The notes under the pieces are model-generated. The model had not been told where the DNA came from. It did no database searches and was given only the letters and a program-made list of their open reading frames with translations. Shown piece by piece: positions 1,554-32,623 of a stretch of 44,112 bases of DNA. Source of the DNA: a virus; the UHGV virus genome UHGV-0127376; one strand, written 5' to 3'. The first letter of the stretch is position 1; each line of letters begins with the position of its first letter. The translations under genes and the position numbers were made by a program.

Positions 1554-1554
1554 T

Positions 1555-2142: not shown

Positions 2143-2159
2143 CTTAAGAGGAATATTAA

Positions 2160-4844: not shown

Positions 4845-4894
4845 CTAGAGGCCCTCCGGGGCCTCCCCTTATCAAAATTCTTTTAGGAGATATT

Positions 4895-7800
4895 ATGGCT
4901 CAGTTTCTGAACCAAGAACCGAATCCACAGGAAAAGGATTCTGCTAAGGGCGCAACACTTAAACCTGCGCCTGAGCGCGTAGATTGGAACGATGCCGGAG
5001 ACAACGGCTTAAACGCACTGGAGCGTGCCTCCTTACTGGCGCAGGCCAAGACCCCAGCTACTACAGCCGGGGAGAGCTTTGCGTCTGGTATGGGTAACAG
5101 CATCATCGCCGCAGCTATCCGTAAGGCCTCTGCCCCGGCATTTGACCGGGACCAGAACTTTAACGCCAAGCAGACTCTGAGCAGCGATACCAGGGCTAAG
5201 CTGTATGCTCCGAATCAGGAAGAGATTGAGTACCTGCACGACTCTGTATCGGTCGAGGATTACAACTACCGCATGCAGCAGATGCTTGAGCAACGCAACC
5301 GTGACCGCTTAATGGCTGACAACACGGTAGCCGGGTTCGCGGGTATGTTGGTGGGTGATTCTCCGTTCATCCTGGCCCCGATGTCTGCCGCTGGTATTGC
5401 TGGCCGCGCAGGCTTAGCTGCACGGACTGCTATCCGCGCTGCTGACGTAGGCTCCGCATTCTATGCGCAGGACCAACTGGGCCAGTCTGCTGCGGTAACT
5501 GCACTGGTAGCGGGCGTAGCTGGGTTGGACCAGCTCTGGGATATGTCTAGGGCTGCTAAAGCTGCTGCTAAGGCTCGTACTGGGCGTGAGCCTATGTTCG
5601 ACCCAGAAGCGCCTACAACTCGTACAGCGAGGGACGCTAATGTTACAGGAGTAGGAGAGGGAGAGGAAATCCTTACTAAGACACTGGATGAAAGCATCCA
5701 AGTATCTAGAAACAATACCGCCTCCGTGAACATGAAAGCACAGCACGTAGTTCAGTTCTTGAAGAAGTCCGAACACTTAACAGCAGGCCAGAAGGCTATT
5801 CTGGACACGCTGGGCGATGCTGTAAATGACATTGATTTTAAACTGGTAGCAGGCTCCGCAAACCGCAGCCGCTACACTTACGCACAGCAAGATTTAGCTA
5901 AGCGTGGAGAGGTGTCTCTACGCGCACCTAAGCGAGCTAATGGCAGCACATGGACTACAGCAGGGGACGCACTGCGTGCTATGGATGCAGACACAAGCAG
6001 GGTAGCCGTGCACGAACTGATTCATGCCGCCACTGCGCGCGCCGTTGACAGTAACCCAGAGATTGCTAAGCGCCTGGATGAAGTGCGCGCTGTTATTGCA
6101 GCGGACTCCACCTTGACGCCGCGTATGCGGTATTACGCTAGTAATGTGCACGAGATGCTGGCAGGCTTAGGTGACAGCCCTGAGTGGGTTGAGCATCTGG
6201 CGCGGACGAAATCCCCAACCGGTAAGAGCATGCTCCGCCAACTGGGCGAGTACATCATGAATGCCCTGGGCATCAAGGCCAAAGGTTCTGCCTTGGAAGA
6301 TGTCTTGGATGCGTACGAGGACGCCGTTAAGTGGACAGCTAAGGATTATGCAGACCAAGCCCAGAGCTTCCGTAGTGAAGCCTTCCAGGACCTGGCGGGC
6401 AGCACTACCCTAAACGAGGCTAAGGGTGCCCAAGCTATGCTGGATGGCGCTAAGAAGAAGCTCTCTACTATGTTTGCCCTGTACGATAACATCGCTCAAG
6501 GCAATGAAGAATTGGCTAAACTGCTAGTGTCGGATGCGTCCGCAGTAGGCGGCCGTCGCCCGTCTGTAGTGGACTTCAAGCGCAACCTCACTTTGGAGAT
6601 GGACGCCAGCGCTAGCGTAGTGGAAGACGCTATCCTGGGCGCGTTGAAGGATAAGGGTGTAGGTTTCTCTGAGCGCTTCTTCCATCGTAGTAAGTTCCGC
6701 GCTGAGCGGGCTGCGCTGGAGGACCGCCTGAGCAAGTACCTGGATGCTGCCTATAGCGCTGACGTAAACGGTAGAGCTGTTCCTGTGCCGGATGCAGAGA
6801 TTGCCACACTGGTTGACGCCTACCGCCGCTCTGGCTGGGCTAGCAAGTGGCACGAGCATATGCTCAATGCCGGGCTAGTGGATGATGGTGCGTTGGTTAA
6901 ATCCGACTACTACTTCCCGCGTCAGTACAGCTACGACAAGATGCGTCAAGGTATCGCACAGGGTAACACTCTGGACGACTACCGCGCCCTGTTCCGGTCC
7001 GCCTTGCGGGACGTGTACCCGAGCATGGAATCAGAGGTAGTGCAGCGTGTAGCCAAGGAGATGGTTGACGGTATATACAATGGCCGTGCCGGACAGTCTG
7101 GCCCTATGTGGAAGCAGCTGATTAACGGTATGGGTAACGATGAGGTCGTTATGGCTATGCGTAGCGCCGGTGTAGAGGAGTCTGCAATCCAGAGCTTCCT
7201 GGCTGGCAACGTACGCGAATCCGGCAGCACATCCCCTGCGCGGAACCTGCGTCAGCGTACTCGGTTCAACATGGACAAAGAGTATCTGGTGAACGGTAAG
7301 AGCATGCGCATGCAGGACCTGATGGATACTGATGTAGCCAAGGTTATGCACGGGTACACTAACCGTATGTCTGGACGTGTAGGCATGGCCTATGCAGGCG
7401 TACAGGACCTGGGACAGCTCGCTAAGATGATTGATGAGTCCAAGCACGCACTGGCGGATTCCGCTAAGTGGGAGAAGACAATCAATGACACCATCGACTT
7501 TATCCTGGGTGGGGCTCCTGCTGACGCAGGGCAGCTTCCGGATTTGCTACGCGCAGCCGGGAACATGGCTAACGCCACCATGCTTAAGAACTCCGGGCTG
7601 TATCAGCTGACGGATACTGCGCTGGCTATGAAGGAGTTCGGCATGGCTAGAGTGCTGCGCAGTATGCGTGACCAGCCTTGGTTCAAGGAAGGTGCCGTAG
7701 CTATCAAGACTCCGGATATGGCTGCCCGTCTAGACACCGTGCTGCGTGGTAATATCCAGAAGGAGATGCGCTTCCGCTGGTTGAATACGTACGCCGACGA

Positions 7801-8593
7801 TAACCTGGACCTGACCCGTCAGGCCTCTTGGTTCAATGTAACCCAGAACGTTGGGCAGGCTGCGCGTCACGTCAACGGTATGAGCATGGTGCACCGGCTG
7901 CAGGTTAACCTGAACTCCGGCATTGTGGCGGATGAGCTTACCCAGATGTTCAAGGGTGATGCTGCGGCGTTTAAGCGTCTGGAGCGTTTCGGGCTTACCC
8001 GCGACGTTGCTGACCGTGCCATCGCTGCCAACAAAGCCAACCCGGGCGCCATGTTCCAGCCGGACCTGCAAATGCAAGTTGAGGTTGTAGGGACGCGTAT
8101 GATGGACTACCTGGTACAGCAGGTTCGTACTGGAGAGACCTCACACTTTGCACAGTTCAACCCTATCGGCAAAGTCATTGTAGGGTACCAGAGCTTCGCA
8201 CTGGCCGCCACTAACAAGATTCTGCGTAGGGAGCTGAGCGACGCTGGGTGGATTGGCGTAGCCCATATTATGGCGTATCAATTCCCGCTGATGCTACTGG
8301 CTACTATGGCTAAGCACGGTATGGATGGGAAGGACGTAGACACCCAGAAACTCATCGGTGAGTCCGTGATGGGTATGAGTGCCATTGGCGGTGTATCCTT
8401 ACTACAGGATATCTTCCTGGGGGATTCTCCCCGTCACTCATTGGCATCTATGGGTTACGTCACAGGACTACTTGGGGCTGTGCAGGACCTGGCTACCGGT
8501 AATATGGATATCAAGACCTTCACTAAGCAGGTGCCGTTAATCCAGGAATTCGCACCTACGCGAGCTATCATCAATAACTTCGGAGACGATTAA
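4895..8593 (+). CDS. Large internal virion / ejection protein (T7 gp16-like by size and position)
   Basis: 1232 aa ORF, SD TAGGAGA upstream, located between internal virion protein and tail fiber. Confidence 0.55.
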   Translation: MAQFLNQEPNPQEKDSAKGATLKPAPERVDWNDAGDNGLNALERASLLAQAKTPATTAGESFASGMGNSIIAAAIRKASAPAFDRDQNFNAKQTLSSDTRAKLYAPNQEEIEYLHDSVSVEDYNYRMQQMLEQRNRDRLMADNTVAGFAGMLVGDSPFILAPMSAAGIAGRAGLAARTAIRAADVGSAFYAQDQLGQSAAVTALVAGVAGLDQLWDMSRAAKAAAKARTGREPMFDPEAPTTRTARDANVTGVGEGEEILTKTLDESIQVSRNNTASVNMKAQHVVQFLKKSEHLTAGQKAILDTLGDAVNDIDFKLVAGSANRSRYTYAQQDLAKRGEVSLRAPKRANGSTWTTAGDALRAMDADTSRVAVHELIHAATARAVDSNPEIAKRLDEVRAVIAADSTLTPRMRYYASNVHEMLAGLGDSPEWVEHLARTKSPTGKSMLRQLGEYIMNALGIKAKGSALEDVLDAYEDAVKWTAKDYADQAQSFRSEAFQDLAGSTTLNEAKGAQAMLDGAKKKLSTMFALYDNIAQGNEELAKLLVSDASAVGGRRPSVVDFKRNLTLEMDASASVVEDAILGALKDKGVGFSERFFHRSKFRAERAALEDRLSKYLDAAYSADVNGRAVPVPDAEIATLVDAYRRSGWASKWHEHMLNAGLVDDGALVKSDYYFPRQYSYDKMRQGIAQGNTLDDYRALFRSALRDVYPSMESEVVQRVAKEMVDGIYNGRAGQSGPMWKQLINGMGNDEVVMAMRSAGVEESAIQSFLAGNVRESGSTSPARNLRQRTRFNMDKEYLVNGKSMRMQDLMDTDVAKVMHGYTNRMSGRVGMAYAGVQDLGQLAKMIDESKHALADSAKWEKTINDTIDFILGGAPADAGQLPDLLRAAGNMANATMLKNSGLYQLTDTALAMKEFGMARVLRSMRDQPWFKEGAVAIKTPDMAARLDTVLRGNIQKEMRFRWLNTYADDNLDLTRQASWFNVTQNVGQAARHVNGMSMVHRLQVNLNSGIVADELTQMFKGDAAAFKRLERFGLTRDVADRAIAANKANPGAMFQPDLQMQVEVVGTRMMDYLVQQVRTGETSHFAQFNPIGKVIVGYQSFALAATNKILRRELSDAGWIGVAHIMAYQFPLMLLATMAKHGMDGKDVDTQKLIGESVMGMSAIGGVSLLQDIFLGDSPRHSLASMGYVTGLLGAVQDLATGNMDIKTFTKQVPLIQEFAPTRAIINNFGDD
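5640..5656 (+). promoter_or_regulatory. Copy 1 of exact 17-mer ATGTTACAGGAGTAGGA, inside the gp16-like gene
   Basis: Identical 17-mer at 16659..16675 and 37846..37862. Confidence 0.25.
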
Positions 8594-8594
8594 T

Positions 8595-9551
8595 ATGGCA
8601 TACAGCTGGCAAGAACAAATCAAGCCAGCTGGTACCCAGGATATCCAGTGCGATATTGAATATTTGGACAAGTCCTATATTCATGTATACCTAGACGGTG
8701 TGGAAACCACTGGGTACACCTGGACCAGCTCTACTAATATCAGGCTTAATTCGGCCTTAGCGGCAAGCACTACTGTGCTACTAATCCGTAAGACAGAGCG
8801 AGAGTATCTGTACATTGAGTTCGCCAGTGGTTCTCCGTTCATTGAGGTAAACGTAGACTCCCAAAACACGCAGTTCCTGCACCTTGCGCAGGAACTAGTG
8901 GAGGGCCGGGCTATACCCGGATTCTATGGCGCTATCAGCATGAACGGGTACCGGATAACCAACTTAGCCAACCCAATCAGTGCCCAAGATGCCGCCACTA
9001 AGGCTTATGTAGATGCCGCCGATGCCTTACTAGGACAGCGCATTGACGCAGAGCATTCGGGGCGGGTATCCGCTGTACAGGCCGAAGCCGTTACACGGAA
9101 GGCAGCAGATGACGCGCTGAGTGCCCGTACCTCCGCCTTGGAGAACACCTTTATAAGCGGTGTAGAGACGGTAAGCTACCCGTGGAGCACGGTCCTGGCC
9201 ACTGATACGGACGAAGTAACTCCAGGCTTAGCCTTCACTAAGGCTGTAGTAGAGGTTAACGGGGTTGGGCAGATTCGTGGCTACAGTTTCGATATTGTAG
9301 ATAATACCATACTGTTTGCAGAGACCTTACCTGCAGGCACTATTGTAGCCGCTCGGCTGGGGGTTGATGTAACTGCGGGGGACGGTTTTGCTACGCAAGC
9401 ATCCCTAGATTACTTAGCCGACTCTTTGGGAGATTTGGCGTATCTGGACAAGGCTGCAGCTGTATCCAACGCAACCGGCACCGGGGATGTAGTGGCTAAA
9501 TTTAACGCACTGCTGGCAGCGCTACGCACCAGTGGGGTGCTGTCTACATGA
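8595..9551 (+). CDS. Tail fiber / adaptor protein (T7 gp17 N-terminal-domain-like)
   Basis: 318 aa; motif YRITNLANPISAQDAATKAYVD resembles the conserved tail-attachment region of T7-type tail fibers (GRRIVNLANAVDDRDAV); short length suggests adaptor for the separate tailspike. Confidence 0.6.
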   Translation: MAYSWQEQIKPAGTQDIQCDIEYLDKSYIHVYLDGVETTGYTWTSSTNIRLNSALAASTTVLLIRKTEREYLYIEFASGSPFIEVNVDSQNTQFLHLAQELVEGRAIPGFYGAISMNGYRITNLANPISAQDAATKAYVDAADALLGQRIDAEHSGRVSAVQAEAVTRKAADDALSARTSALENTFISGVETVSYPWSTVLATDTDEVTPGLAFTKAVVEVNGVGQIRGYSFDIVDNTILFAETLPAGTIVAARLGVDVTAGDGFATQASLDYLADSLGDLAYLDKAAAVSNATGTGDVVAKFNALLAALRTSGVLST

Positions 9552-9563
9552 TAGGAGAAGAGC

Positions 9564-9866
9564 ATGGCAGGGGCAGCTAAACGCAGTCGCCTCTCGGAGC
9601 TGCACCGTATGTTCACCGAGGCCTTGATTGAAGAAATCAAGCAGTCTAAGGAAGATGAGGTGCCGCTCCCCGCAGCAGATAAATCGGTCATTGCTAAGTT
9701 CTTGAAGGATAACGACATCACCGCGGACGCAGATTCCGAGGAGATGCAGGACCTTCGTGACGAATTCGATGACGAGCTAGCGGCGCGCAGAGAGGCGCGT
9801 AAGCAAGAGATTCTAAATAAAGTTGGTGGTTCAGACTCTGAGGACTTACTAGAAGGAATTGTCTAA
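9564..9866 (+). CDS. Terminase small subunit (DNA maturase A)
   Basis: 100 aa charged protein immediately upstream of and overlapping the large terminase; SD AGGAG. Confidence 0.5.
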   Translation: MAGAAKRSRLSELHRMFTEALIEEIKQSKEDEVPLPAADKSVIAKFLKDNDITADADSEEMQDLRDEFDDELAARREARKQEILNKVGGSDSEDLLEGIV

Positions 9867-11722
9867 TGGTATCGGTGAAGACTGCGCGAAGACTGCGCAT
9901 GCTCAACCAGAAACTTACTGGTTATAGTGCGAATCCGCGCAGTATTCCCAAAGAGGAGCGCGAGGATATCGCGATGATGATGGCCGCGGCGCTAAGCGAC
10001 TTCCGGGAATTCGCGTACATCGGTATGCGGTTCCTGGGCTTTACGCTCACGGACATGCAGGCCGACATTGCAGAGTACATGCAGAAGGGCCCCCGGAAGC
10101 GCATGGTGGCCGCGCAGCGTGGTGAGGCTAAGTCTACACTAGCTGCACTGTACGCCGTCTGGAGGCTCATCCAGGACCAATCCTGCCGTATCCTGATTGT
10201 GTCCGGTGCAGAGAAGCAGGCGTCCGACGTAGCGAACTTAATCATTCGTATGATTGAGACATGGCCGCTGCTGTGCTATTTGAAGGCTGATCCTACTCGT
10301 GGGGACCGTACTTCATTCGAAGGTTATGACGTACACTGTGACCTCAAGCCGCTGGAGAAATCCGCCAGCGTAGCCTGTGTAGGTATCACTGCATCCCTGC
10401 AGGGTAAGCGCGCGGACCTGCTGATTCCGGATGATATCGAGACCACCAAGAATGGTTTAACGCAAACCCAGCGTGAGCAGCTGCTGATGATTTCTAAAGA
10501 CTTCGCGGCTATCTGTACGCACGGGGATACGCTGTACCTGGGTACACCACAGACCAAGGACAGTATCTATAAAACCCTGCCGGGACGTGGCTTCGAGGTC
10601 CGCGTGTGGCCCGGGCGCATTCCGTCTGTTGAAATGGAAGAGCGATATGGAAGTACACTTGCTCCTTATATCCTGGAGCTTATTGAGCGCGGCTATAAAC
10701 GCACCGGCTTCGGAGTCGACGGGACGCTAGGCGAGAGCACGGACACCGGGCGCTATGACGAGGATGCGCTGATTGAGAAGGAGCTGGACTTTGGTCCGGA
10801 AGGCTTCCAGCTGCAGTACATGCTCGACACCACCCTGTCCGACCAAATGCGTACGCGCATCAAGCTATCGGATATGCTGGTTTACTCTGGCAGCCAGGAT
10901 TCCTCCCCGGAGACGTTCTCCTACATTGCGGACCGCAGGCACCTGTACCAGCACGAGCATGAGGGGATTATGGGTCAGCAGATGTACTTCCCGGCATTCT
11001 ACGGGGACATGCACCTGCCGTACCAGCATAAGGTACTGGTGGTGGACCCGGCTGGTTGTGGTGGGGACGAAGTGTCCTACGCTGCTGGAGGTGCTGCGAA
11101 CTCGTACATTCACCTATTCTCCGTAGGCGGATTCCAAGGAGGTATCAGCGAAGAGAACATTGATAAACTGATTGACCTGTGTGTAGAGTTGGACATCCCG
11201 GATATGGTGGTGGAGAGCAATATGGGGCACGGTACCGTGTCTATGCTTATCCTGAACCGATTACGTGAGCGGCGTCTCGCCGGTATCGGTGTAAGGGACC
11301 TGAATAACTCCACGCAGAAAGAGCGTCGTATCATCGACACAATCAGCCCAGTTACTCGTCGCCATCGCCTGATAGTGCATGAGCGTGCTATTCACGACGA
11401 TATCAGTACCTGTATGGCATATTCCCGCGATAGGCGTTGGCTGTACTCTGCGTTCGCGCAGTTGTCCGGTATCACGTACGACCGCGGTAGCCTTGCGAAG
11501 GATGACCGGGCAGACGCAATCGCCATGATGGTGGCTACGCTGAATGGGCATCTGGTGGAAGATGAGAAAGTGGTGGCTGAGCGTGAGTCTGAGAAGATGG
11601 CTCGGGCCTTCATTGAGAACCCACTGGATTGGGCACAGAGCAAAGTGTCTAAGGGCCTTCGTGGTGTAGCTGCTCGGCTACATAACCGGGGCAGAGGTAA
11701 ACAACATAGAGGAAGAAGATAA
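9866..11722 (+). CDS. Terminase large subunit (DNA maturase B)
   Basis: 618 aa; size and position as T7 gp19; ATPase/nuclease-type acidic motifs (LIPDDIETT, VVDPAGCGGDE). Confidence 0.8.
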   Translation: MVSVKTARRLRMLNQKLTGYSANPRSIPKEEREDIAMMMAAALSDFREFAYIGMRFLGFTLTDMQADIAEYMQKGPRKRMVAAQRGEAKSTLAALYAVWRLIQDQSCRILIVSGAEKQASDVANLIIRMIETWPLLCYLKADPTRGDRTSFEGYDVHCDLKPLEKSASVACVGITASLQGKRADLLIPDDIETTKNGLTQTQREQLLMISKDFAAICTHGDTLYLGTPQTKDSIYKTLPGRGFEVRVWPGRIPSVEMEERYGSTLAPYILELIERGYKRTGFGVDGTLGESTDTGRYDEDALIEKELDFGPEGFQLQYMLDTTLSDQMRTRIKLSDMLVYSGSQDSSPETFSYIADRRHLYQHEHEGIMGQQMYFPAFYGDMHLPYQHKVLVVDPAGCGGDEVSYAAGGAANSYIHLFSVGGFQGGISEENIDKLIDLCVELDIPDMVVESNMGHGTVSMLILNRLRERRLAGIGVRDLNNSTQKERRIIDTISPVTRRHRLIVHERAIHDDISTCMAYSRDRRWLYSAFAQLSGITYDRGSLAKDDRADAIAMMVATLNGHLVEDEKVVAERESEKMARAFIENPLDWAQSKVSKGLRGVAARLHNRGRGKQHRGRR

Positions 11723-12096
11723 TGGCATCAATCATCGCAGCTAAAACTGCGGACGTCCAGTACGCCATTGTAGGCACGTGCCAGAACCTGGAGAAGCAGG
11801 TGCAGCCGGACTACAACGTAGGCTTCGTAGGTACGACTGCCCTGACTAAGCTGAACGCGTTCTTCACGTACATGCAGTCCCAGGGCTATACGGCTACCCG
11901 TGCCGGTACAGCCTTTAAGGATGACGGTACGCTGCAGGCGCGCCTGTTCAGCATGCTGTCACAGCTCTCTAAGACCGGCTACGTTGCCCTTACAGGTACA
12001 GGTATGCCGCTCGGTGAGGGCTCCGGTACAGCGTTTGATGATTCGTTCACTGCACTGCAGAGTGCATTCGTAGCCGCCACTGATGCGGCAGAATAA
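11722..12096 (+). CDS. Hypothetical protein
   Basis: 124 aa ORF with SD AGAGGAAG, start overlaps terminase stop. Confidence 0.5.
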   Translation: MASIIAAKTADVQYAIVGTCQNLEKQVQPDYNVGFVGTTALTKLNAFFTYMQSQGYTATRAGTAFKDDGTLQARLFSMLSQLSKTGYVALTGTGMPLGEGSGTAFDDSFTALQSAFVAATDAAE

Positions 12097-12107
12097 GGAG
12101 AGTACAC

Positions 12108-12290
12108 ATGGCAATTGCAAAAGCAACCTCAGCGCAACAGCAGGAGCTGTTGCGTCAGCTGAACATTCTCGGTAAGGACCTGTATGCTATCCTTACGCAG
12201 CCGCAGAACGTGGCCCAGACTGGTGCTGCCTTCGATACCAAGATTGCTGCGCTTGAAGCCGCGGTGGCCGCAGTGGAGGCTGCTAGCTAA
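12108..12290 (+). CDS. Hypothetical small protein
   Basis: 60 aa ORF with SD AAGGAGAG; Ala/Gln-rich. Confidence 0.4.
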   Translation: MAIAKATSAQQQELLRQLNILGKDLYAILTQPQNVAQTGAAFDTKIAALEAAVAAVEAAS

Positions 12291-12694
12291 TGCGTAAACT
12301 GGTCGCTGGGTTGCTGCTCGCGGTTACTCTGACTGGTTGCTCGGCGACCTCTGCACTCACCGGCTTAGTTGGTTCTAAGCCGGATGTATCTGCTCAGGTT
12401 GGTGCCGAGAACACCAAACAAACCGTTGGCTTGAATAACAAGGTGGACTCCAGCACCACCAACAAAACTGATGTACAGGATTCTAACGTAGGCACTTTGG
12501 ACACGTCCAGTAAGAAGCAGGTGCAAACTATTAGCACCGGGACAATCCAGGCAGAACGCCTGCAGGTGGTTAACAATGATAGTTACAGTCTTATCCTCGC
12601 CGGATTAGCTGGGGCCAGTATTCCTCTGGTCTTCCTAGTGGTCATTCTGGTGATTCGTAAGCTGTTCAGGAAGAAGGGGCAGCAGGATGATTAA
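12290..12694 (+). CDS. Putative unimolecular spanin (lipoprotein with C-terminal transmembrane helix)
   Basis: N-terminal lipobox LTGC after signal-like hydrophobic stretch; C-terminal TM segment LILAGLAGASIPLVFLVVILVI followed by basic residues; sits in lysis cassette. Confidence 0.55.
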   Translation: MRKLVAGLLLAVTLTGCSATSALTGLVGSKPDVSAQVGAENTKQTVGLNNKVDSSTTNKTDVQDSNVGTLDTSSKKQVQTISTGTIQAERLQVVNNDSYSLILAGLAGASIPLVFLVVILVIRKLFRKKGQQDD

Positions 12695-12938
12695 GGTGGG
12701 AGACATGGTTGGAGCAGACCTCGCTACCCGGGCAGGTGCAGCAGTTACCGGCGCTACGGTATCAGGAGGTTGGTTGGCAGAGTTAATGAGCTGGAACTGG
12801 AGCACTATCAGCTTCATCACTGCGACTATGTGCGCAGTGCTAACCCTGGCGTGGAATGCGTATTACAAGCGACGTACATTCAAGCTCCTAGAAGAGCAGG
12901 CGCGTAAGGGGACTATTAAATATGAGTTTAAGGACTAA
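12687..12938 (+). CDS. Putative holin (pinholin-like)
   Basis: 83 aa; Gly/Ala-rich weakly hydrophobic segment followed by a clear TM helix (WSTISFITATMCAVLTLAW) and charged C-terminus; immediately upstream of SAR endolysin. Confidence 0.5.
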   Translation: MIKVGDMVGADLATRAGAAVTGATVSGGWLAELMSWNWSTISFITATMCAVLTLAWNAYYKRRTFKLLEEQARKGTIKYEFKD

Positions 12939-13530
12939 GGTTATTGCGGCCCTCACGGGGGCCACTATGCTGGGTGGTGCTATTACCGGGGTGGTTCAGC
13001 ACAACGAGGGATTGAGCCTTACCGCCTATAAGGATAGTGCCGGTGTCCCTACAATCTGCTACGGGGAGACAAAGGGCGTCAAGATGGGCCAGAGAGCCAC
13101 GCTGAGCGATTGTCAGAAGCAACTGATAGAATCAGCAGGGGCACATGCAAAGGCTCTTGACGGGCTTCCTATGCAGCTCTCTGACGTAGCTCTGGTTGGG
13201 TCTGTAGACTTCATTTATAACGTAGGCGTAGCTGGCTTCAACGGCAGTGCTGTGAAGCGGCACCTCAAAAGCCTGAATTACGCAGAAGCTGGAAAGGCCG
13301 TACTGGACTGGCGCTATATTAGCAAGTATCAGCAGAAATCCCCGGGCATCGGTTGGGTGTACAAGGGCAGCAACCGCTGGACCTTCGACTGCTCTCAGTA
13401 TATTAACGGGCAGCGCAATAAAGTGTGCTGGGGCCTATGGGAGCGCAGACAGTGGCAGAGCAAGGCCATTGGGAATCAGTATAAGAATGTAAATGCTGCA
13501 GTGGCAGCCCTTACTAAGACCGGAGGATAA
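12922..13530 (+). CDS. SAR endolysin (GH24 lysozyme family)
   Basis: N-terminal Gly/Ala-rich signal-anchor-release segment (VIAALTGATMLGGAITGVV) followed by E-x8-D-x5-T catalytic spacing in NEGLSLTAYKDSAGVPTICYGET, as in T4/P21-type lysozymes. Confidence 0.8.
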   Translation: MSLRTKVIAALTGATMLGGAITGVVQHNEGLSLTAYKDSAGVPTICYGETKGVKMGQRATLSDCQKQLIESAGAHAKALDGLPMQLSDVALVGSVDFIYNVGVAGFNGSAVKRHLKSLNYAEAGKAVLDWRYISKYQQKSPGIGWVYKGSNRWTFDCSQYINGQRNKVCWGLWERRQWQSKAIGNQYKNVNAAVAALTKTGG

Positions 13531-15486
13531 ATGGCGTTAATTAGATTAGTAGCTCCAGAGCGGGTATTCTCCGACTTGGCGAGCATGGTAGCATATCCAA
13601 ACTTTCAGGTACAGGACAAGATTATCCTGCTGGGCAGCGCCGGTGGGGACTTCACCTTTACTACTGCCGCGTCGGTAGTGGATAACGGAACTGTGTTTGC
13701 TGTACCTGGTGGGTATCTACTCCGTAAATTCGTGGGTCCGGCATACAGCTCCTGGTTCAGCAATTGGGCGGGCATAGTAACGTTCATGAGCGCACCTAAT
13801 AGGCACCTGGTTGTGGACACAGTCCTGCAGGCCACGAGTGTGCTCAACATCAAAAGCAACTCTACGCTGGAGTTTACTGATACCGGAAGAATCCTGCCGG
13901 ATGCCTCGGTTGCACGTCAAGTGCTTAACATTATCGGCTCGGCACCCTCGGCATTCGTCCCGTTAGCGGCGGATGCCACAGCGGGCAGCAAAGTCATTAC
14001 GGTGGCTGCCGGGGCTTTGTCTGCGGTAAAAGGTACGTACTTGTATCTTCGCTCTAACAAGCTGTGTGATGGTGGTCCTAACACCTACGGTGTAAAGATT
14101 TCCCAGATTAGGAAAGTGGTGGGGGTTAGCACCTCCGGTGGCGTCACCAGTATTCGGCTGGATAAAGCGCTGCACTATAACTACTACCTGTCTGATGCCG
14201 CGGAAGTAGGTATCCCGACAATGGTGGAGAACGTAACCTTAGTATCCCCGTACATCAACGAGTTCGGCTACGACGATTTGAACCGGTTCTTTACTATCGG
14301 TATCTCTGCCAACTTTGCCGCGGACTTGCACATCCAGGACGGGGTTATTATTGGCAACAAACGCCCCGGGGCTTCTGATATAGAAGGGCGTAGTGCTATC
14401 AAGTTCAATAACTGCGTAGATAGTACCGTTAAGGGTACGTGCTTCTACAACATCGGATGGTACGGGGTAGAGGTGCTCGGCTGCTCAGAGGACACGGAAG
14501 TACACGATATCCACGCCATGGACGTACGCCACGCAATCTCTCTGAACTGGCAGAGCACTGCAGACGGGGACAAGTGGGGAGAGCCTATCGAGTTCTTAGG
14601 CGTTAACTGCGAAGCCTACAGCACAACCCATGCCGGGTTTGATACTCACGACATTGGTAAGCGTGTGAAGTTCGTTCGCTGCGTTTCATACGACAGTGCT
14701 GACGATGGGTTCCAAGCGCGCACTAACGGGGTAGAGTACTTGAACTGTCGAGCTTACCGCGCAGCATTTGATGGGTTCGCCTCCAACACCGGTGTAGGCT
14801 TCCCTATCTATAGAGAGTGCTTAGCTTATGACAACGTACGCTCTGGCTTTAACTGTTCGTACGGTGGTGGCTACGTTTATGACTGTGAGGCTCACGGTAG
14901 CCAGAACGGTGTCCGCACCAACGGGGGTTGTGTTAAAGGCGGTCGGTACACTCGCAACTCCAGCTCTCACATCTTCGTCACTAAGGATGTAGCTGAGACG
15001 GCGCAGACGTCCCTGGAGATTGATGGCGTGAGCATGCGCTACGACGGTACCGGAAGAGCTGTGTACTTCCACGGGACTATGGGCATTAACCCTACCATGG
15101 TATCTATGTCCAATAATGACATGACCGGTCACGGCTTGTCCTGGGCATTACTGAGTGGCTACACTGTTCAACCTACGCCTCCGCGCATGTCCAGGAACTT
15201 ACTGGATGACACAGGTATCCGTGGAGTGGCAACGCTGGTTGCTGGCGAGGCTACAGTCAACGCCCGTGTACGCGGAAACTTTGGCAGCGTAGCTAACTCC
15301 TTCAAGTGGGTGTCTGAGGTCAAGTTGACGCGGTTAACCTTTCCTTCTAGTGCTGGGGCCTTGACGGTTACTGGCGTAGCACAGAACCAGGATGTACCTA
15401 CACCTAATCCGGACCTAAACAGCTTCGTGATTAGGAGTAGTAACGCAGCGGATGTATCCCAGGTAGCCTGGGAGGTGTATCTCTAA
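13531..15486 (+). CDS. Tailspike protein, probable polysaccharide depolymerase
   Basis: 651 aa ORF at the end of the late region after the lysis genes; sequence rich in repetitive G/N/D/T segments typical of beta-helix tailspikes; no T7 gp17-type N-terminus, consistent with docking to the adaptor at 8595..9551. Confidence 0.6.
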   Translation: MALIRLVAPERVFSDLASMVAYPNFQVQDKIILLGSAGGDFTFTTAASVVDNGTVFAVPGGYLLRKFVGPAYSSWFSNWAGIVTFMSAPNRHLVVDTVLQATSVLNIKSNSTLEFTDTGRILPDASVARQVLNIIGSAPSAFVPLAADATAGSKVITVAAGALSAVKGTYLYLRSNKLCDGGPNTYGVKISQIRKVVGVSTSGGVTSIRLDKALHYNYYLSDAAEVGIPTMVENVTLVSPYINEFGYDDLNRFFTIGISANFAADLHIQDGVIIGNKRPGASDIEGRSAIKFNNCVDSTVKGTCFYNIGWYGVEVLGCSEDTEVHDIHAMDVRHAISLNWQSTADGDKWGEPIEFLGVNCEAYSTTHAGFDTHDIGKRVKFVRCVSYDSADDGFQARTNGVEYLNCRAYRAAFDGFASNTGVGFPIYRECLAYDNVRSGFNCSYGGGYVYDCEAHGSQNGVRTNGGCVKGGRYTRNSSSHIFVTKDVAETAQTSLEIDGVSMRYDGTGRAVYFHGTMGINPTMVSMSNNDMTGHGLSWALLSGYTVQPTPPRMSRNLLDDTGIRGVATLVAGEATVNARVRGNFGSVANSFKWVSEVKLTRLTFPSSAGALTVTGVAQNQDVPTPNPDLNSFVIRSSNAADVSQVAWEVYL

Positions 15487-15582
15487 GTAGCTCCCTGGGG
15501 TATCTCTATGGTATCCCGGGGCACTACTTGGGGTGCACGTCTATACCTGGACCTGAAATTTATTAGACTTTAAAATGAGGAT

Positions 15583-16044
15583 ATGTCTATGAACATCAAA
15601 TATGACACAACATCCCCTAGCTGCTTGGTGTGGCTCAAGGGTAGGCGCTCCGGTGCTCCAGCGGGTACCCGCAACACTCGTGGCTACTGGGTGGTACAGG
15701 TATCTGGTAGAAAGATACAGGCACACCGCCTCATCTGGGAACTACACAACGGGCCTATTCCAGACGGATATGTGGTGGACCACATCAACCAAAACCCCGG
15801 TGACAACAGATTAGAGAACCTGCGCTTAGCTACGGTTAGCGAAAACAACTGTAACGCACGCAGGTCTAAGCGGGAACATCCTAGGGGTGTATACTACACT
15901 GGCACCTGCTGGCGCGGGGAGTTCTGGAAGGACGGTAAGCGTTACATGAAGAAGCACAGCTCCTACGAAGTTATCTGCAAGTGGGTACTAGAGAAACGTC
16001 AAGAGCAACACAAGGCCTTCACCCCGGGGCAGGTGTATATCTGA
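15583..16044 (+). CDS. HNH homing endonuclease
   Basis: Motif VDHINQNPGDNRLENLRLATVSENNCN (HNH_3/AP2-type); free-standing between tailspike and repeat region. Confidence 0.8.
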   Translation: MSMNIKYDTTSPSCLVWLKGRRSGAPAGTRNTRGYWVVQVSGRKIQAHRLIWELHNGPIPDGYVVDHINQNPGDNRLENLRLATVSENNCNARRSKREHPRGVYYTGTCWRGEFWKDGKRYMKKHSSYEVICKWVLEKRQEQHKAFTPGQVYI

Positions 16045-16405
16045 AACCAAAAATTATTATACTCGCCCTTGAGCCTCCCTCACCCTCAACGACGCCAATT
16101 GCCCCCATAGGGGGTGCCTAGCGCATAAAAGGAGGGGTGGGGTGGGTGCCTAGACGTCTAGACGGCCCTAGGGCGCTCTCTGAGGTGTGGAGCGCCACGG
16201 CAGCTAAGACCGTGGCTATAGCGGAAGCCTCAGAGGGCCTCAGTGGCTCCCTGCGCTGCGCTGGGGCTATCGCTAGTGCTGCCCCACGGCTTGGCCTGTG
16301 CGTGGCACTGAGTGGCTCCTGTGCGCTCTACGGGGCACTAGGGGCTATCCCTGTGCGCTCCCTGTGGGCCATAGGGGTGCGCTCTGCCTTGCTTATTTTG
16401 CGCGT

Positions 16406-16462
16406 CCATAGTGGGCCCGCCTAGTGCCTGCATTGTGGGGCCATAGTGGGCCTGCCTAGTGC
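16406..16462. repeat. Two 22-bp direct repeats CCATAGTGGGCC(C/T)GCCTAGTGC (16406..16427, 16441..16462) with degenerate copies at 16105..16124 and about 16369..16388
   Basis: Read directly from sequence; part of an 822-bp non-coding, repeat-rich zone 16045..16866. Confidence 0.6.
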
Positions 16463-16658
16463 GCTGTAGTGCGTCACGGTGCTATCCCTAGTATGCACTA
16501 GGCTATCCACTGGCTATCCCTAGTGCTTTACATTGTGCCGATTATATGCTACGCTGCGCGCTCCCCACTAGGGCGCACATCCTCACCCAACACTATCCCG
16601 GCGCTATCTCTTTGCTATCCCTTTGCTCTTACTTTCATTCGAAAGCTGTCATGAAATG

Positions 16659-16675
16659 ATGTTACAGGAGTAGGA
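16659..16675 (+). promoter_or_regulatory. Copy 2 of exact 17-mer ATGTTACAGGAGTAGGA (candidate phage-RNAP promoter or other regulatory site)
   Basis: Identical 17-mer also at 5640..5656 and 37846..37862. Confidence 0.3.
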
Positions 16676-16866
16676 GGGTTTTAGGGCACTATATACACAC
16701 TACTTACTACTACTCACTAGTAGTCACTAGTATCCCCTAGTAATGCCCTGTATGACTGACCGTAGGGAGGGAAGCATTACCTAGAATCTTGTAACCTCCG
16801 CTCCTATCCCTCCGGGATATCGTCGCTATGGTTACGCTACTAATCACTATGTAAGGAGATATTGTT

Positions 16867-17283
16867 GTGGCTAGAACATTTAAGATTGTGGTTGATAAGG
16901 AAGGTTATCCAGTGATTAATGGTGCTGGGCCTGAGTATGTGAATAAGCGAGGTAAGAGAGACTATAAGACTGTGGCGCTGCATAGGGCCGTGGTTATGGA
17001 TGCTCTGGGAATCACTAGCTACGGTTCTGGCTATCACGTACATCACTGTGACAGTAACCGCCTTAACTGTGACTTCAATAACCTGATACTGGTTAGCGCT
17101 GACACTCACCGGGCCATACACTTAGCACAGATTCAGGAAGGGAGATGCTTCACAAAGGATGAGTTATTGGCTAGTCCTGAGTACGATACTAACTGGCGAG
17201 AGTTCGACGTGACTTATGGGGACTACAATAGTTTACTGCACGCAGACCTTTGGGGGTCTGCTTACTCTTTTTGCTCCCAGTGA
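16867..17283 (+). CDS. HNH endonuclease
   Basis: Motif YHVHHCDSNRLNCDFNNLILVSADTHRAIH; GTG start with SD AAGGAG 9 nt upstream. Confidence 0.75.
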   Translation: MARTFKIVVDKEGYPVINGAGPEYVNKRGKRDYKTVALHRAVVMDALGITSYGSGYHVHHCDSNRLNCDFNNLILVSADTHRAIHLAQIQEGRCFTKDELLASPEYDTNWREFDVTYGDYNSLLHADLWGSAYSFCSQ

Positions 17284-17303
17284 TAAAAAGTTTAAAAAAG
17301 TAC

Positions 17304-17333
17304 TTGCTTCTTTTGGTTCAATAGGGCTATAGT
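17304..17333 (+). promoter_or_regulatory. sigma70-like promoter (TTGCTT -18- TATAGT) with A/T-rich upstream element
   Basis: -35 17304..17309, -10 17328..17333; upstream AAAAAGTTTAAAAAAG. Confidence 0.35.
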
Positions 17334-17435
17334 TCAATCACCGGGAGGCACTGAGGCGCTAACCGGGGCAGAGTCGGGAGATTCAGCCGGATTAAAGCTA
17401 GATAGTGTGAAGGGTTAGACACTCAATAAAAAGAG

Positions 17436-17464
17436 TTGACACCGCGAAGAACATAAGCTAGATT
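17436..17464 (+). promoter_or_regulatory. sigma70-like promoter (TTGACA -17- TAGATT)
   Basis: Consensus -35 at 17436..17441, 17-nt spacer, -10 at 17459..17464; A-rich upstream. Confidence 0.5.
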
Positions 17465-17504
17465 GAATCCCGAAGTAAGCAGTAAGGCAGTAAGAAATAA
17501 ACGC

Positions 17505-17533
17505 TTGACAAGTTCTGATTCACTGAGTAACTT
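17505..17533 (+). promoter_or_regulatory. sigma70-like promoter (TTGACA -17- TAACTT), weaker -10
   Basis: Consensus -35 at 17505..17510; -10 match only 3/6. Confidence 0.3.
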
Positions 17534-17883
17534 AGATAGCGAACAAGGCAAGGATAACCACTCTAGGGCGCAAGGATGTGTGTCCCGTCGGATTAGGCTA
17601 GACGTTAAAAATGACCTCTTAAAGGTTTAGTAGTAAGCTGGTTTGCGGGGAGGCCCAGTACCTTGACTGGTACGTTGACGACCCACCCCTAGACAATCAG
17701 TTAAAGAGTAAACGTGCCGGACGTTATCACCGGGGTTCTGAGACAAACCACACTGTCGAGGCGAGAGCAGCTCGCTCCTCTGAATCGAGGGAACAAGGCG
17801 CGGAGTGTATCCCGCAAAGAGCATATAACATAGCGCAGCAGTAACAAGGTTGCGCTAGATTATGTTCTCTGAGAGGTAAGAGT

Positions 17884-18081
17884 ATGCGCAAATCAAAGCG
17901 TTTAGCATTACGGCGGAATATGCAATTATCACTGAATCCCACCGACGACGTGCCGCTTACTGTGAAGCCTAGCAAACAAGGGTTGAGCAGTGAGCACAGG
18001 GTGAGGGGAAAGCAAAAACAAAAGGGCAGTAGCAGGCAGCCATCTGGATGGCCTACTGTTAACTCCCAATTTGGTCGATAA
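17884..18081 (+). CDS. Possible first early ORF (basic, low-complexity 65 aa)
   Basis: ATG with SD AGAGG upstream, downstream of the promoter cluster; composition unusual so coding status uncertain. Confidence 0.3.
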   Translation: MRKSKRLALRRNMQLSLNPTDDVPLTVKPSKQGLSSEHRVRGKQKQKGSSRQPSGWPTVNSQFGR

Positions 18082-18085
18082 TTAC

Positions 18086-18117
18086 AGCCTATAGCATCCT
18101 ACGGGGTGCTATGTGAA
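18086..18117 (+). promoter_or_regulatory. Conserved 32-bp hairpin element, copy 1 (stem 18091..18099 / 18104..18112)
   Basis: 29/32 identical to 18802..18833; 9-bp stem with 4-nt loop. Confidence 0.4.
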
Positions 18118-18152
18118 GTAATTACCTAAACAACCAATCAAAGAGGTGCATT

Positions 18153-18728
18153 ATGACCCATTCAACTGGTAAAGTATTCAAGCTCACCGCTGCGGGCAGC
18201 ATTCGTAAAGCGCTGGGCGACGTAGTGGAAGCAAAGCGCAACATCACTATTAGCGCGCTCTTCCACGGCCTGATTAGCAGCAACGTTTCCTGGGCTATGG
18301 ATATGCAGCGCAGCGATGCCGCGGACTTCGATATGGTGCTGCGTACGCTGCTGCCTATCAAGTTCAACAAGGAGTCCGGCAAATACGAATTCAACGCGAA
18401 GAAGTGCTATGCGTCTGCTGAGAAGCTGGGCATCGAACTGGACACTATGCGTCTGGACTATAAACAAGCTGACAAGCAGGAGCGCGAAGTAATTGTAGCC
18501 AGCTTCTATAGCTCCTGTATGGCCCTGTACGCTGCCGAAGCGGAGCAGGTAAAGAATGACGCGCTGGATGCCGATGCAGTGCGCTTGCAAGCGCTGGGGC
18601 GCGTTAAAAACGCTATCAAGAAGGCAAAAGAGACTGGTGTAAGCGACGCTGACCTCGTGTCTATGCTGGTATCGCAGGGCGTGGATGTACGCGCTGTACT
18701 GGACGCAACTTTGAAGGCGGCGGCATGA
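18153..18728 (+). CDS. Early protein, unknown function
   Basis: 191 aa, SD AAAGAGGTG upstream; flanked by the two hairpin elements. Confidence 0.6.
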   Translation: MTHSTGKVFKLTAAGSIRKALGDVVEAKRNITISALFHGLISSNVSWAMDMQRSDAADFDMVLRTLLPIKFNKESGKYEFNAKKCYASAEKLGIELDTMRLDYKQADKQEREVIVASFYSSCMALYAAEAEQVKNDALDADAVRLQALGRVKNAIKKAKETGVSDADLVSMLVSQGVDVRAVLDATLKAAA

Positions 18729-26290: not shown

Positions 26291-28686
26291 TGCACATAGA
26301 TTTAGAGGTTCAAAACCATGAATATTACGGCTCTAAAGCAAGCCCATACTGCCCTGACAACTATGTTGTTGAGTCAGCATGGCGTATCGACACGACACAG
26401 GCTGACGGTACTACCACTGTTGGCGCGACTCAATCGGTGCGCTTCAATTCAAGAGCTGATTTCTTGGCGGGAAACAGTGCAGCAGAAGGCTGCCGGTGGT
26501 TTCATATCCCCGAGGATTGCTGGCTTATTGTTGCGCACAACGCAGCCTATGAGATTTCTTGGTTTCTCACGTACCAGCGACAGCAGTTTGAAGCCTTCCT
26601 CAAGCGCGGCGGCAGGGTGTTCTGCACAATGCACGGTGAATACATCGCCTCGGACTTTCAGAGCATGTATCCGTCATTGGACGAGACGGCTCCTAAGTAC
26701 GGCGGTACGCACAAAGTAGACGGGGTTAAGCTTCTGTGGGAGCAGGGTGTGCTAACCTCCCAGATTGACCCGATGCTGCTACATGACTACCTGGTTAACG
26801 GGGACATCCCGAACACGGCCCTGTGCTTCTACGGCCAGTGCGCTACGTTCGCCCAGCGCAATCAGATGCAGTACGTGTGGGAGCGTATGGATGCCTTGCT
26901 GGCTTGGGCGTACTGCGAATGGTTCGGCCTGTTCGTGAATATGCCAATTGCACGCAAGAACCAGGAGGAGCAGGAGCAGCGCATCCGTGAGATTAAGCAG
27001 GAACTGCAGCAGTACATCCCGAAGGACTTGCCGGAGACGCTGGACTTCAATTTCGGGTCGGACTTTCATATGTCTGCACTGGTGTACGGCGGGCCTATAA
27101 AGTACCGCAAGAAGGTCCCCTATGACCCTCCGCAGTACGTCAAGGCCGACTACTATAAGTACGAGGACGAAGATGGTGCGCACACCTATATACCTGTACA
27201 CGACACGCACATGCAAGAACTTCAAACGGAAGGCGGATGGTGGCGTGTAGTGACATATCGTGCGGGTAAGAACAAGGGGCTCCCTAAAGTATTCCGCCTC
27301 GATACCGAGGAAGAGAAACTTAAATGGGAAGACGACCTTTACTTCTGCCCGGGCCTAGTGAACATCCAGGAGCTTCCGGAAGTTATCCGGGAGAAGTACG
27401 CAGAGCGCGGGGAGTTCCGACAGGCGCGCACCCTGCAGGATGGCACCCCTGTGTATAGCACCAGCACTGATGCAATGGAGGCGCTGGCTCGCCAAGGGTT
27501 CGAGTTCTGTAAGTTGGTGAACGAACTGGCGGCGCTGGAGAAGGATACCGGCACTTACTATTTGCGAGAAGTACTGGACGCAGAAGGTAATGTAAAAGAG
27601 CGGAAGGGGATGCTGCAGTATGTAATCCCGGAGCGTCCCGATGGTTCCGGCATCATTCACCACCGGCTGAATACTTGCGCCACCGTAACCGGGCGCTTGA
27701 GTAGCTCTAACCCGAACCTGCAGAACCTACCCCGCCCGGATGAGGATGGCGACGGTGTGGCTAAATCCAAGGTGAAGCAGGTGTTCACCAGTAGATTCGG
27801 GGACAACGGACGTATCACTGAGGTTGACTACTCGGCACTGGAAGTGGTTATGTCCTGTGTACACACGGGTGACAAGAAACTGCTGGGACTGCTGCAGAGT
27901 GGTACGGATATGCACTGTTACCGCCTAGCTTTCCGCGAGGGATTACCGTATGAAGAAGTATATGAGCGCTGCCACAACAAGAAGCACGAGCTGCATCCGC
28001 TTTGGAAGGCAATGCGTACAGGTATTAAGGCTCCTAGCTTTGCAGCCCAGTATGGCGCTACGGCTAAGGGGATTGCGTTTGCTACTGGATGTACGGTGGA
28101 ATTTGCACAGGCTTTCTTGGACAACGAGGCTGCGCTGTTCCCGCAAACAATTGGCTTCCGCGCTGTTGTCAAGGAAGAGGTAGAACGTACCGGTGCGGAG
28201 GGGCGCATGTACCGGGAGCAGGCTGACGACGGCAGCTACCGAATCTACCGCATTGGGACGTGGACCAGCCCAGCCGGTGCCCGCTACAGTTTCCGTCAGA
28301 AAGAGCAGTGGAAAGAGGTTGTGCCTGGGCAGCGTAAGCAGAAGGTAATGGACTACAAGGAAACAGAGATGGCTAACTACTGGTGCCAGGGGGAAGCATT
28401 CTTCCTGATGGCGGTAGCCGCCGGTATGGTTCTGCGTGCACTCCTGGCCCGTGACTGGTTCGACAATCAGGTGTGCCTGATTACGAACGTGCACGATGCG
28501 TTGTATCTGGACAGCGCCAACCCGGAGGTTGGACGTGAGGCGAGCCTGCTGGTTAAGCAGTGCATGGAGGATGCACCTAAGCGTATTCACCAGCTCTGGC
28601 CTAACTACGGCATCATTGGTGAGGTCCCGTTCCCAGCAGAGGCTGAGATGGGTACGAGTATGTACAGTAAGGAGAAGGTAGAATGA
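26272..28686 (+). CDS. DNA polymerase (family A, T7 gp5-like)
   Basis: Exo motif HIDLE near N-terminus; polymerase motifs TGRLSSSNPNLQNLP and NVHDALYLD; start may be ATG 26290 rather than TTG 26272. Confidence 0.9.
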   Translation: MSTTSIMHIDLEVQNHEYYGSKASPYCPDNYVVESAWRIDTTQADGTTTVGATQSVRFNSRADFLAGNSAAEGCRWFHIPEDCWLIVAHNAAYEISWFLTYQRQQFEAFLKRGGRVFCTMHGEYIASDFQSMYPSLDETAPKYGGTHKVDGVKLLWEQGVLTSQIDPMLLHDYLVNGDIPNTALCFYGQCATFAQRNQMQYVWERMDALLAWAYCEWFGLFVNMPIARKNQEEQEQRIREIKQELQQYIPKDLPETLDFNFGSDFHMSALVYGGPIKYRKKVPYDPPQYVKADYYKYEDEDGAHTYIPVHDTHMQELQTEGGWWRVVTYRAGKNKGLPKVFRLDTEEEKLKWEDDLYFCPGLVNIQELPEVIREKYAERGEFRQARTLQDGTPVYSTSTDAMEALARQGFEFCKLVNELAALEKDTGTYYLREVLDAEGNVKERKGMLQYVIPERPDGSGIIHHRLNTCATVTGRLSSSNPNLQNLPRPDEDGDGVAKSKVKQVFTSRFGDNGRITEVDYSALEVVMSCVHTGDKKLLGLLQSGTDMHCYRLAFREGLPYEEVYERCHNKKHELHPLWKAMRTGIKAPSFAAQYGATAKGIAFATGCTVEFAQAFLDNEAALFPQTIGFRAVVKEEVERTGAEGRMYREQADDGSYRIYRIGTWTSPAGARYSFRQKEQWKEVVPGQRKQKVMDYKETEMANYWCQGEAFFLMAVAAGMVLRALLARDWFDNQVCLITNVHDALYLDSANPEVGREASLLVKQCMEDAPKRIHQLWPNYGIIGEVPFPAEAEMGTSMYSKEKVE

Positions 28687-28904
28687 GTATAAAGTCTGGC
28701 AGTGTTGTGGAGTTGATGGACCTGGGGCCTGAGCCGATAGACCCGCGGTATGCAGCATACTTCGCCCCGGGTACGAGGCACACGGTTATGTTCTTCGACC
28801 CGGTTACTGGGGAGATAGAACTAAGTTATCCTGGACTAGTAGTAAGTAGACCGGGGGATGGTGTTACCTTCTTCCCGGGGGAGTACAAGCTTATCGTGGA
28901 ATAG
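28683..28904 (+). CDS. Hypothetical small protein
   Basis: 73 aa ORF overlapping polymerase stop (ATGA). Confidence 0.5.
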   Translation: MSIKSGSVVELMDLGPEPIDPRYAAYFAPGTRHTVMFFDPVTGEIELSYPGLVVSRPGDGVTFFPGEYKLIVE

Positions 28905-29065
28905 TGATAGGTGGACCCTTGGGTGGTGTAGGGGGTTAGGGTAGCATGGAAATACACTGGGGTCAACTAAATAATTAAATAAAATTATTTGTTGACTCTA
29001 GCTTGATTCTGTGATTCATAGAGAATTAATGTGATACGAGTAGGAACAACACAAGAGGGTACCGA

Positions 29066-29504
29066 ATGTCGATGTGTATTGACCACGGGTATAACAAATG
29101 CCTTAACAAGAACGGATACCGCCGGGCATGGTATAAGCCGACCAGGCGATTGGAGCTGCTGCATCGGGTGGTGTATGCTGAGCATAACGGGCTGGATATA
29201 AGGGCGCTGGCTGGCCTGTCTGTTAGACATACCTGCGATAACCCCAGGTGCATTAACCCTAAGCACTTAGTATTGGGTGGGAACGCATATGGATAATATG
29301 CGGGACCGTGCAGAGCGCGGAAGGAACCCAGATGTGCGTGGGGATAGGAACCCAAAAGCGCAGTTAACTTGGGATGCTGTGCAGGATATCAGGGATAACT
29401 ATATCCCATACAAGAAAGGTATGCGGCAACACTTTGCTAATAAGTACGGTGTAGGTGTACATGTAATTAGTGACGTAATAAGTAACAGGAGCTGGAATGC
29501 CTAA
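29066..29504 (+). pseudogene. HNH homing endonuclease (paralog family A) interrupted by a +1 frameshift in a G-run near 29276..29281
   Basis: ORF 29066..29296 (..VRHTCDNPRCINPKHLVLGG) and ORF 29277..29504 (GTHMDNMRDRAERGRN..) align in series with the intact paralogs (..HLIPGTPADNNKDRAVRGR..); removing one G restores a 146-aa protein. Confidence 0.6.
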
Positions 29505-30477: not shown

Positions 30478-30490
30478 CACAGAGGTGATG

Positions 30491-30658
30491 ATGAAAATGG
30501 GAATCTGTTCTGTACTGGGCCTTATCTTTGTAACCTTGAAACTGACTGGCGTTATCGCCTGGTCCTGGTTGTGGGTGCTGCTCCCGTTCTGGGGGCCTAT
30601 GGCACTCGGCGTAATCCTAGTGTTCTTGGCGGTGGCCCTCAAAGCTGCCTCCCGCTAA
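30491..30658 (+). CDS. Small membrane protein (two predicted TM helices)
   Basis: Hydrophobic 55-aa product; SD AGAGG 5 nt upstream of ATG 30491 (ORF-track start 30440 lacks SD). Confidence 0.5.
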   Translation: MKMGICSVLGLIFVTLKLTGVIAWSWLWVLLPFWGPMALGVILVFLAVALKAASR

Positions 30659-30709
30659 GCCCTGCATCTGCACGTAAATATCATTCAAACTAAACGAGGA
30701 AGTAATTAT

Positions 30710-31498: not shown

Positions 31499-31551
31499 TC
31501 AACCCTAACCTAAACTAATACGGCCCCTCCTAGGGGCCTTAGAGGAAGCCT

Positions 31552-32459: not shown

Positions 32460-32620
32460 TGCGTAAATTTATATCCTACATAATTTCAGTCCCAGCACTG
32501 GTACTACTTGCAATCAGCTTGATGCTAATGGCGCTGGCGCTCAGTGTAGCCGGAGGCTCTAAGGGCGTGGCTATGCTGGGCCGTGCAATCCATGCTTTTA
32601 CTGACCACTTAAAGGTGTAG
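32459..32620 (+). CDS. Small membrane protein (53 aa, MRKF...), first of tandem pair
   Basis: ATG overlaps upstream stop; single TM helix; below ORF-track cutoff. Confidence 0.45.
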   Translation: MRKFISYIISVPALVLLAISLMLMALALSVAGGSKGVAMLGRAIHAFTDHLKV

Positions 32621-32623
32621 AGA

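Follow-up and report, generated by a model that had tools for sequence, protein, structure and literature searches.

Probable concatemer junction with a single merged copy of the direct terminal repeat in a permuted genome assembly of a KP34-like Klebsiella phage

[quoted passage not shown] The ends of fHe-Kpn01 were mapped by restriction analysis, ligation with Sanger sequencing, and PhageTerm, and its 222-bp DTR has blunt ends (PMC7291057). In KP34, the promoter S2 of the phage RNA polymerase is active in vitro (PMC6834552). At the left end of T7, a 160-bp repeat with CCTAAAG words inside it is followed by an array of eight such words (nt 175-340), the first phage promoter phiOL (405) and the host promoters A1-A3. 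The right repeat boundary of T7 carries the class II pause signal ATCTGTT at nt 161-167 (bioRxiv 10.1101/2021.01.11.426313), at which the polymerase-lysozyme complex has been reported to pause and to engage gp18 and gp19 (PMC3276506). Packaging of T7 phagemids requires a pac site together with the terminal repeat (PMC13236587), and in T7-like Yersinia phages the interval from the left repeat to the first phage promoter holds repeat arrays that vary (PMC5923468). The loss of DTRs is frequent in short-read assemblies (PMC10438801).

The window, i.e. the whole stretch of viral DNA analysed here (44,112 bases), has every long open reading frame (ORF) on the plus strand. Pfam searches identified genes for a T7-type single-subunit RNA polymerase at 35369-37837 and for a K1-capsule lyase tailspike at 13531-15486. 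The gene order is collinear with that of Klebsiella phage KP34, and alignment matched KP34 28084-41606 to window 1-13558 and KP34 26610-28081 to window 42642-44112. In KP34 coordinates, the window ends meet inside the tail tubular B gene, so that the whole Drulisvirus genome is present in permuted order. By its sequence, the virus is a Drulisvirus, i.e. a KP34-like podovirus of Klebsiella whose tailspike is a K1 lyase, and the window represents its complete genome in a circularly permuted assembly. At the 44112/1 join, two bases (CC in KP34) are missing, and simple joining breaks the tail tubular B frame. The terminase genes were assigned as follows:

9564-9866, plus strand: terminase small subunit, identified from its synteny with KP34 gp50 and gp51
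9866-11722, plus strand: terminase large subunit (Pfam Terminase-T7_RNaseH-like, E = 1.3e-30)

The two subunits (9564-11722) are expected to be the enzymes that cut at the DTR boundaries. Two further features were seen elsewhere in the window. The major capsid gene contains a perfect 16-bp palindrome, TTGATGAGCTCATCAA, at 41631-41646, the sole self-complementary 16-mer in the window. A tandem repeat with periods of 18 and 27 bp occupies 31420-31482, within the plus-strand ORF 30710-31498 and in a stretch of negative GC skew. A tRNA/tmRNA scan of the whole window yielded none.

The zone at 16045-16866 had been proposed, in a sequence-only reading, to be a repeat-rich genome terminus holding one collapsed terminal repeat. 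We put the probability that this zone of a KP34-like (Drulisvirus) phage comprises the concatemer junction and the left-end control region at about 0.9. BLAST of 16045-16866 matched 245 phage records, nearly all of them from Klebsiella Drulisvirus. Its predicted position between the tailspike gene and the early promoters was confirmed, with the tailspike gene ending at 15486, a sigma-70 promoter starting at 17436 and a gene order collinear with KP34. The HNH genes described on both sides were likewise found, as ORFs 15583-16044 and 16867-17283 both match Pfam HNH_3. In the following list and below, a slash within a sequence marks the right DTR boundary.

15583-16044, plus strand: gene for an HNH endonuclease immediately before the junction (Pfam HNH_3, E = 3.9e-22)
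16045-16077, plus strand: unique right-end DNA before the DTR, with the box ...AAAWTTATTATACTCRCCCTTGRGCCTC; AT-rich (39% GC) and conserved
16078-16384, plus strand: putative DTR, single collapsed copy (~307 bp, 66% GC), placed by homology to the annotated DTRs of relatives
16078-16117, plus strand: left-terminal box CCTCACCCTCAACGACGCCAATTGCCCCCATAGGGGGTGC, which holds the 5+5 inverted repeat CCCCC-ATA-GGGGG
16125-16230, plus strand: indel-rich variable core of the DTR, with a G-run, the palindrome CTAGACGTCTAG and the segment 16183-16222
16350-16400, plus strand: right-boundary box CCTGTGCGCTCCCTGTGGGCCATAGGGGTGCGCTC/TGCCTTGCTTATTTTG, which spans the DTR end and is nearly invariant

Twelve relatives were aligned (AttikonH4, AttikonH5, KpV71, JKT6, KP34, Kp_Pokalde_001, Dlv622, NTUH-K2044-K1-1, fHe-Kpn01, KPPK108.1, KpV48 and SAA231). 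A DTR of 192-311 bp is annotated in eleven of them, NTUH-K2044-K1-1 having none. The left ends of all twelve begin with (C)(C)CTCACCCT..., which aligns with window 16078. Ten of the eleven annotated DTRs end with ...GGGGTGCGCTC(TG), just before CCTTGCTTATTTTG, which corresponds to window 16384-16386; the DTR of KPPK108.1 starts as in the others, and its annotation stops earlier, inside the homologue of the window's DTR. Further records also start or stop at nucleotides homologous to these boundaries. We infer from these alignments that the left physical end of the genome lies at window 16078 (CCTCACCCT...) and the right DTR boundary at 16384 ±2 (...GGGGTGCGCTC/TGCCTTGCTTATTTTG). Because the ends were deduced from relatives, they carry an uncertainty of about ±2 nt, and the annotations of different depositors disagree by 1-2 nt at either end. 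The Drulisvirus DTRs are homologous to that of the window in sequence, with the same start (CCTCACCCT...), the same end and a variable core, and they occupy the same place, after the tailspike gene and an optional HNH gene and before the early region. With ~307 bp, the window DTR is at the long end of the Drulisvirus range.

The DTR sequence occurs only once in the window, and the two terminal copies would therefore have been merged by assembly. The junction is likewise present as a single copy in two IMG/VR contigs with 99.7-99.9% identity over the region. The proposal of a single collapsed terminal repeat is thus borne out by the homology of the relatives' DTR boundaries to 16078 and 16384 ±2, by the single occurrence of the sequence and by the nature of the window as a full permuted genome. 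The broader claim that the 822-bp zone is a terminus was right insofar as the DTR lies within it, but only 16078-16384 is repeat. Most of the GCTATCC copies, the 22-bp repeats and the CACTAGT repeats are located to the right of the DTR, in unique left-end DNA. Headful packaging, with circularly permuted ends and a repeat-rich zone that is merely a regulatory intergenic region, would agree with the absence of duplicated ends from the window. We consider it extremely improbable. The large terminase belongs to the T7 type, and in close relatives the genome ends are defined, have been mapped by experiment and carry identical terminal copies (left and right copies were identical in all three relatives checked, AttikonH4, KpV71 and AttikonH5). 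We rejected headful packaging on these grounds; in addition, numerous independent records share these nucleotides as their first or last. The merged terminal repeat is an ordinary, already known feature of the genus. The main use of its identification is practical, and current understanding is unchanged: the true virion genome would comprise ~44.4 kb, i.e. the window plus a second repeat copy of ~307 bp, the sequence should be re-oriented to begin at window 16078, and ORF calls across 16078-16650 should be left out of the gene annotation.

Conservation was followed in two alignments, one of 24 sequences (the window and 23 IMG/VR contigs) and one of the window with the 12 GenBank relatives. The left-terminal box (16078-16117) is nearly invariant in both the 13-sequence and the 24-sequence alignment. 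The 33-nt box before the DTR is conserved ahead of the right DTR copy in AttikonH4, AttikonH5, KpV71, JKT6 and KP34, regardless of the upstream gene. The upstream HNH gene itself is optional, being present in KpV71 and JKT6 and missing from KP34 and the Attikon phages; the last ~45 nt before the DTR are conserved with or without it. In MW590329, the homologous 23 nt of the right-boundary box are annotated as 'concatemer junction'. The variable core differs among relatives. Its palindrome CTAGACGTCTAG, which the earlier reading had correctly placed at 16150-16161 and which occurs once in the window, is found in some relatives only. Conservation drops to ~0 over the ~40 bp at 16183-16222, which are absent from the 23 aligned IMG/VR contigs and the 12 aligned GenBank relatives. 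An 11-nt inverted repeat, with its arms at 16175-16185 and 16228-16238, flanks this segment. When four sub-regions, including the boundaries, were folded as single-stranded DNA, the result was unremarkable (z-scores of -0.66 to -1.58), with small hairpins only, such as CCCCC-ATA-GGGGG.

A box of the form CTTGCTT(A/C)TTTTG occurs twice in the window, at the right DTR boundary (16388-16400) and just past the second HNH gene (17303-17315), possibly by chance; in KPPK108.1 and SAA231 it is duplicated after the DTR. The string CTTGCTTNTTTTG, found at 16388 and 17303, was considered as a repeated signal and discarded as too weak, since at least two matches were obtained in 4 of 100 shuffles.

The earlier description of the zone as lacking a convincing ORF needs qualification, as a 95-aa ORF exists at 16137-16424, albeit without a coding signature. 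Some relatives' records annotate hypothetical proteins at this place (ORF1 of NTUH-K2044-K1-1; kpv71_01), in line with the idea that the region encodes small proteins. This idea is very unlikely and failed a coding test: variable columns are spread evenly over the codon positions (40/36/45 of 75 each) with no third-position bias, the lengths of most indels among relatives are not divisible by three, the ORF has no Pfam match, and it crosses the DTR boundary. Searches for other elements gave no match in Rfam (E ≤ 1) over 15400-18300 and no promoter-like site in a sigma-70 scan within 16045-16866, in which TTTACA at 16527 had no properly spaced -10 element.

With respect to composition, no other 822-bp stretch of the genome is as rich in repeats as 16045-16866, which has a repeated-8-mer score of 101 against a mean of 21 (sd 12.4). 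It was previously called GC-rich, which applies to 16078-16384 (66%) but not to the zone overall (55.4% vs 54.0% for the genome); 16651-16866 is AT-rich, with 43.5% GC. The tetranucleotide CTAG is enriched about eight-fold (16 observed vs 2.1 expected from length). Exact GCTATCC is present in five copies in the zone, short of the six or more previously claimed, whereas the hexamer GCTATC has seven copies in 16045-16866. The other repeats were located where they had been reported. The only two copies of the 22-mer CCATAGTGGGCC[CT]GCCTAGTGC in the window start at 16406 and 16441. The degenerate copies at 16105 and 16369 share with these two the word CCATAG, which has four copies in the zone and one in the other 43 kb. 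CACTAGT occurs at 16715 and 16725, within a 10-bp tandem array of 3.2 copies. The 17-mer ATGTTACAGGAGTAGGA is present once in the zone, at 16659, and elsewhere in the window at 5640 and 37846, with 0.07 matches expected by chance. The elements to the right of the DTR are as follows:

16406-16462, plus strand: pair of 22-bp direct repeats CCATAGTGGGCCYGCCTAGTGC, offset by 35 bp, to the immediate right of the DTR
16478-16585, plus strand: conserved block of ~100 bp with GCTATCC at 16481, 16502 and 16513 and with CTAGTG/CACTAG words
16592-16635, plus strand: (G/A)CTATC(C/T) array with an 11-bp period (Tandem Repeats Finder, 2.3-3 copies)
16657-16672, plus strand: predicted strong phage RNA polymerase promoter S2, TGATGTTACAGGAGTA, with a 16/16 match to KP34 S2
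16701-16732, plus strand: the CACTAGT repeats, a tandem array TACTCACTAG of 10-bp units within the predicted transcribed leader, with a copy number that varies among relatives
16867-17283, plus strand: second HNH endonuclease gene (Pfam HNH_3, E = 1.8e-7), between the phage and host promoters
17436-17464, plus strand: sigma-70-type early promoter TTGACA-17-TAGATT, strong, the first of the early promoter region

The 17-mer of the earlier reading is the strong promoter S2 of the KP34 RNA polymerase, as predicted here from its match. The KP34 strong-promoter consensus T(A/G)ATGTTACAGGAGTA (PMC6834552) is matched exactly by the TG form at 16657-16672 and by the TA form at 5638 and 37844. KP34 carries S2 at the same relative place (nt 475-490), and the TAATG... 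copies at 5638 and 37844 correspond to its S1 sites at nt 33721 and 22197; in KP34, too, one such copy follows the RNA polymerase gene and another falls within the gene for the internal virion protein. Transcription from S2 would be expected to start at 16673. At the left-end promoter site, many relatives have a three-base variant, TGAAGTAACCGGAGTA, or a variant of one to two bases in place of TGATGTTACAGGAGTA. The early promoter at 17436-17464 is homologous to the annotated KP34 promoter at 931-959. The second HNH gene is present in AttikonH4 and KPPK108.1 and missing from KP34, KpV71 and fHe-Kpn01; because of this presence in some relatives and absence from others, it looks like a mobile homing-endonuclease insertion.

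The 22-mers, the GCTATCC units spaced by 11 bp and the block at 16478-16585 might alternatively form an iteron-like replication origin, or binding sites of another protein, rather than packaging elements. T7 has a secondary origin in the corresponding position, close to phiOL; the short direct repeats are spaced by about one helical turn, and the block, in which conservation is at least 0.9 in most columns (24 sequences), is strongly conserved though non-coding. An origin is nevertheless unlikely, given that the copy numbers of the 22-mer and of the 10-bp array vary freely among relatives, and it could coexist with the DTR at 16078-16384.

The DTR reading also places the zone beside the left end of T7, which has the same order of elements: DTR, short repeat arrays, first phage promoter and host promoters. 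In the window, the short-word array (22-mers, GCTATCC units and CTAGTG words) spans 16385-16650, before the first phage promoter, and CCTAGTG, GCTATCC and CCATAG words stand in equivalent places instead of CCTAAAG. The earlier comparison with a T7 DTR flanked by short arrays therefore applies to the right-hand side; a left array is absent, only 33 nt lying between the HNH stop codon and the DTR, whereas T7 has an array to the left of its repeat. The window further differs from T7 in the length of its DTR, which is about twice that of the T7 repeat, and in the HNH gene inserted ahead of the host promoters.

By analogy with T7, the ends of this phage would be processed as follows. Replication would yield head-to-tail concatemers with one repeat copy per junction, and a T7-type terminase would recognise conserved boxes at or near both boundaries and cut at 16077/16078 and at ~16384/16385. 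DNA synthesis during packaging would duplicate the repeat, leaving a copy at each end of the packaged genome. After injection, the host RNA polymerase would start from the promoters at 17436 onward, and the phage polymerase would later use S2. An assembly opened elsewhere than at the termini would show the junction in mid-window.

The right boundaries of the two systems were compared at the level of the pause signal. ATCTGTT is present at the right repeat boundary of T7, T3 and SP6, and ATCTGT at that of gh-1. It was not found at the right DTR boundary of the window, which has CTCTGCC (4/7 match). The right-boundary box of the window, CTCTGCCTTGCTTATTTTG, differs from ATCTGTT, is equally conserved and lies at the same position.

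At the left end, T7 and the window share the signature CTCAC-N18-CCCCCATAGGGGGT. In both, CTCAC is located at nt 2-6 and CCCCCATAGGGGGT at nt 25/26, the signature spanning nt 2-39 in T7; the left ends read TCTCAC...(19 nt)...CCCCCATAGGGGGTACCTAAAG in T7 and CCTCAC...(18 nt)...CCCCCATAGGGGGTGCCTAGCG in the window. Similar sequences are present in gh-1, SP6 and phiKMV and, with a looser match, in T3. A full-text literature search for the string CCCCATAGGGGG retrieved no paper stating a similarity between the left ends of T7 and KP34. The left-terminal signature and the order of elements are kept between T7 and the distant KP34 group, which supports a common end-processing mechanism across the family. 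This likeness in signature and layout is the one point of wider interest, and it is drawn from sequences that have been public for decades.

We tentatively suggest that the left box CTCAC-N18-CCCCCATAGGGGGT and the right box GCGCTC/TGCCTTGCTTATTTTG could be maturation signals shared across Autographiviridae subfamilies, a possibility that we regard as rather doubtful. The idea is only partly new, because a GenBank depositor had already labelled the right box as a concatemer junction. If it is true, T7 and KP34-like phages would have retained the left box as an element for terminase or end recognition, and the right box would play, for the KP34-type polymerase, the part of the T7 class II pause site, coupling transcription to concatemer cutting.

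Four IMG/VR contigs that are not Drulisvirus-like (L047, L071, L072 and L058) also carry CTCAC-N16/17-CCCCCATAGGGGGT, for example as ...CTCACTTACCCTCTATGGATTGCCCCCATAGGGGGTAATTTTTCTTGAC..., so that the left-end signature reaches further lineages.
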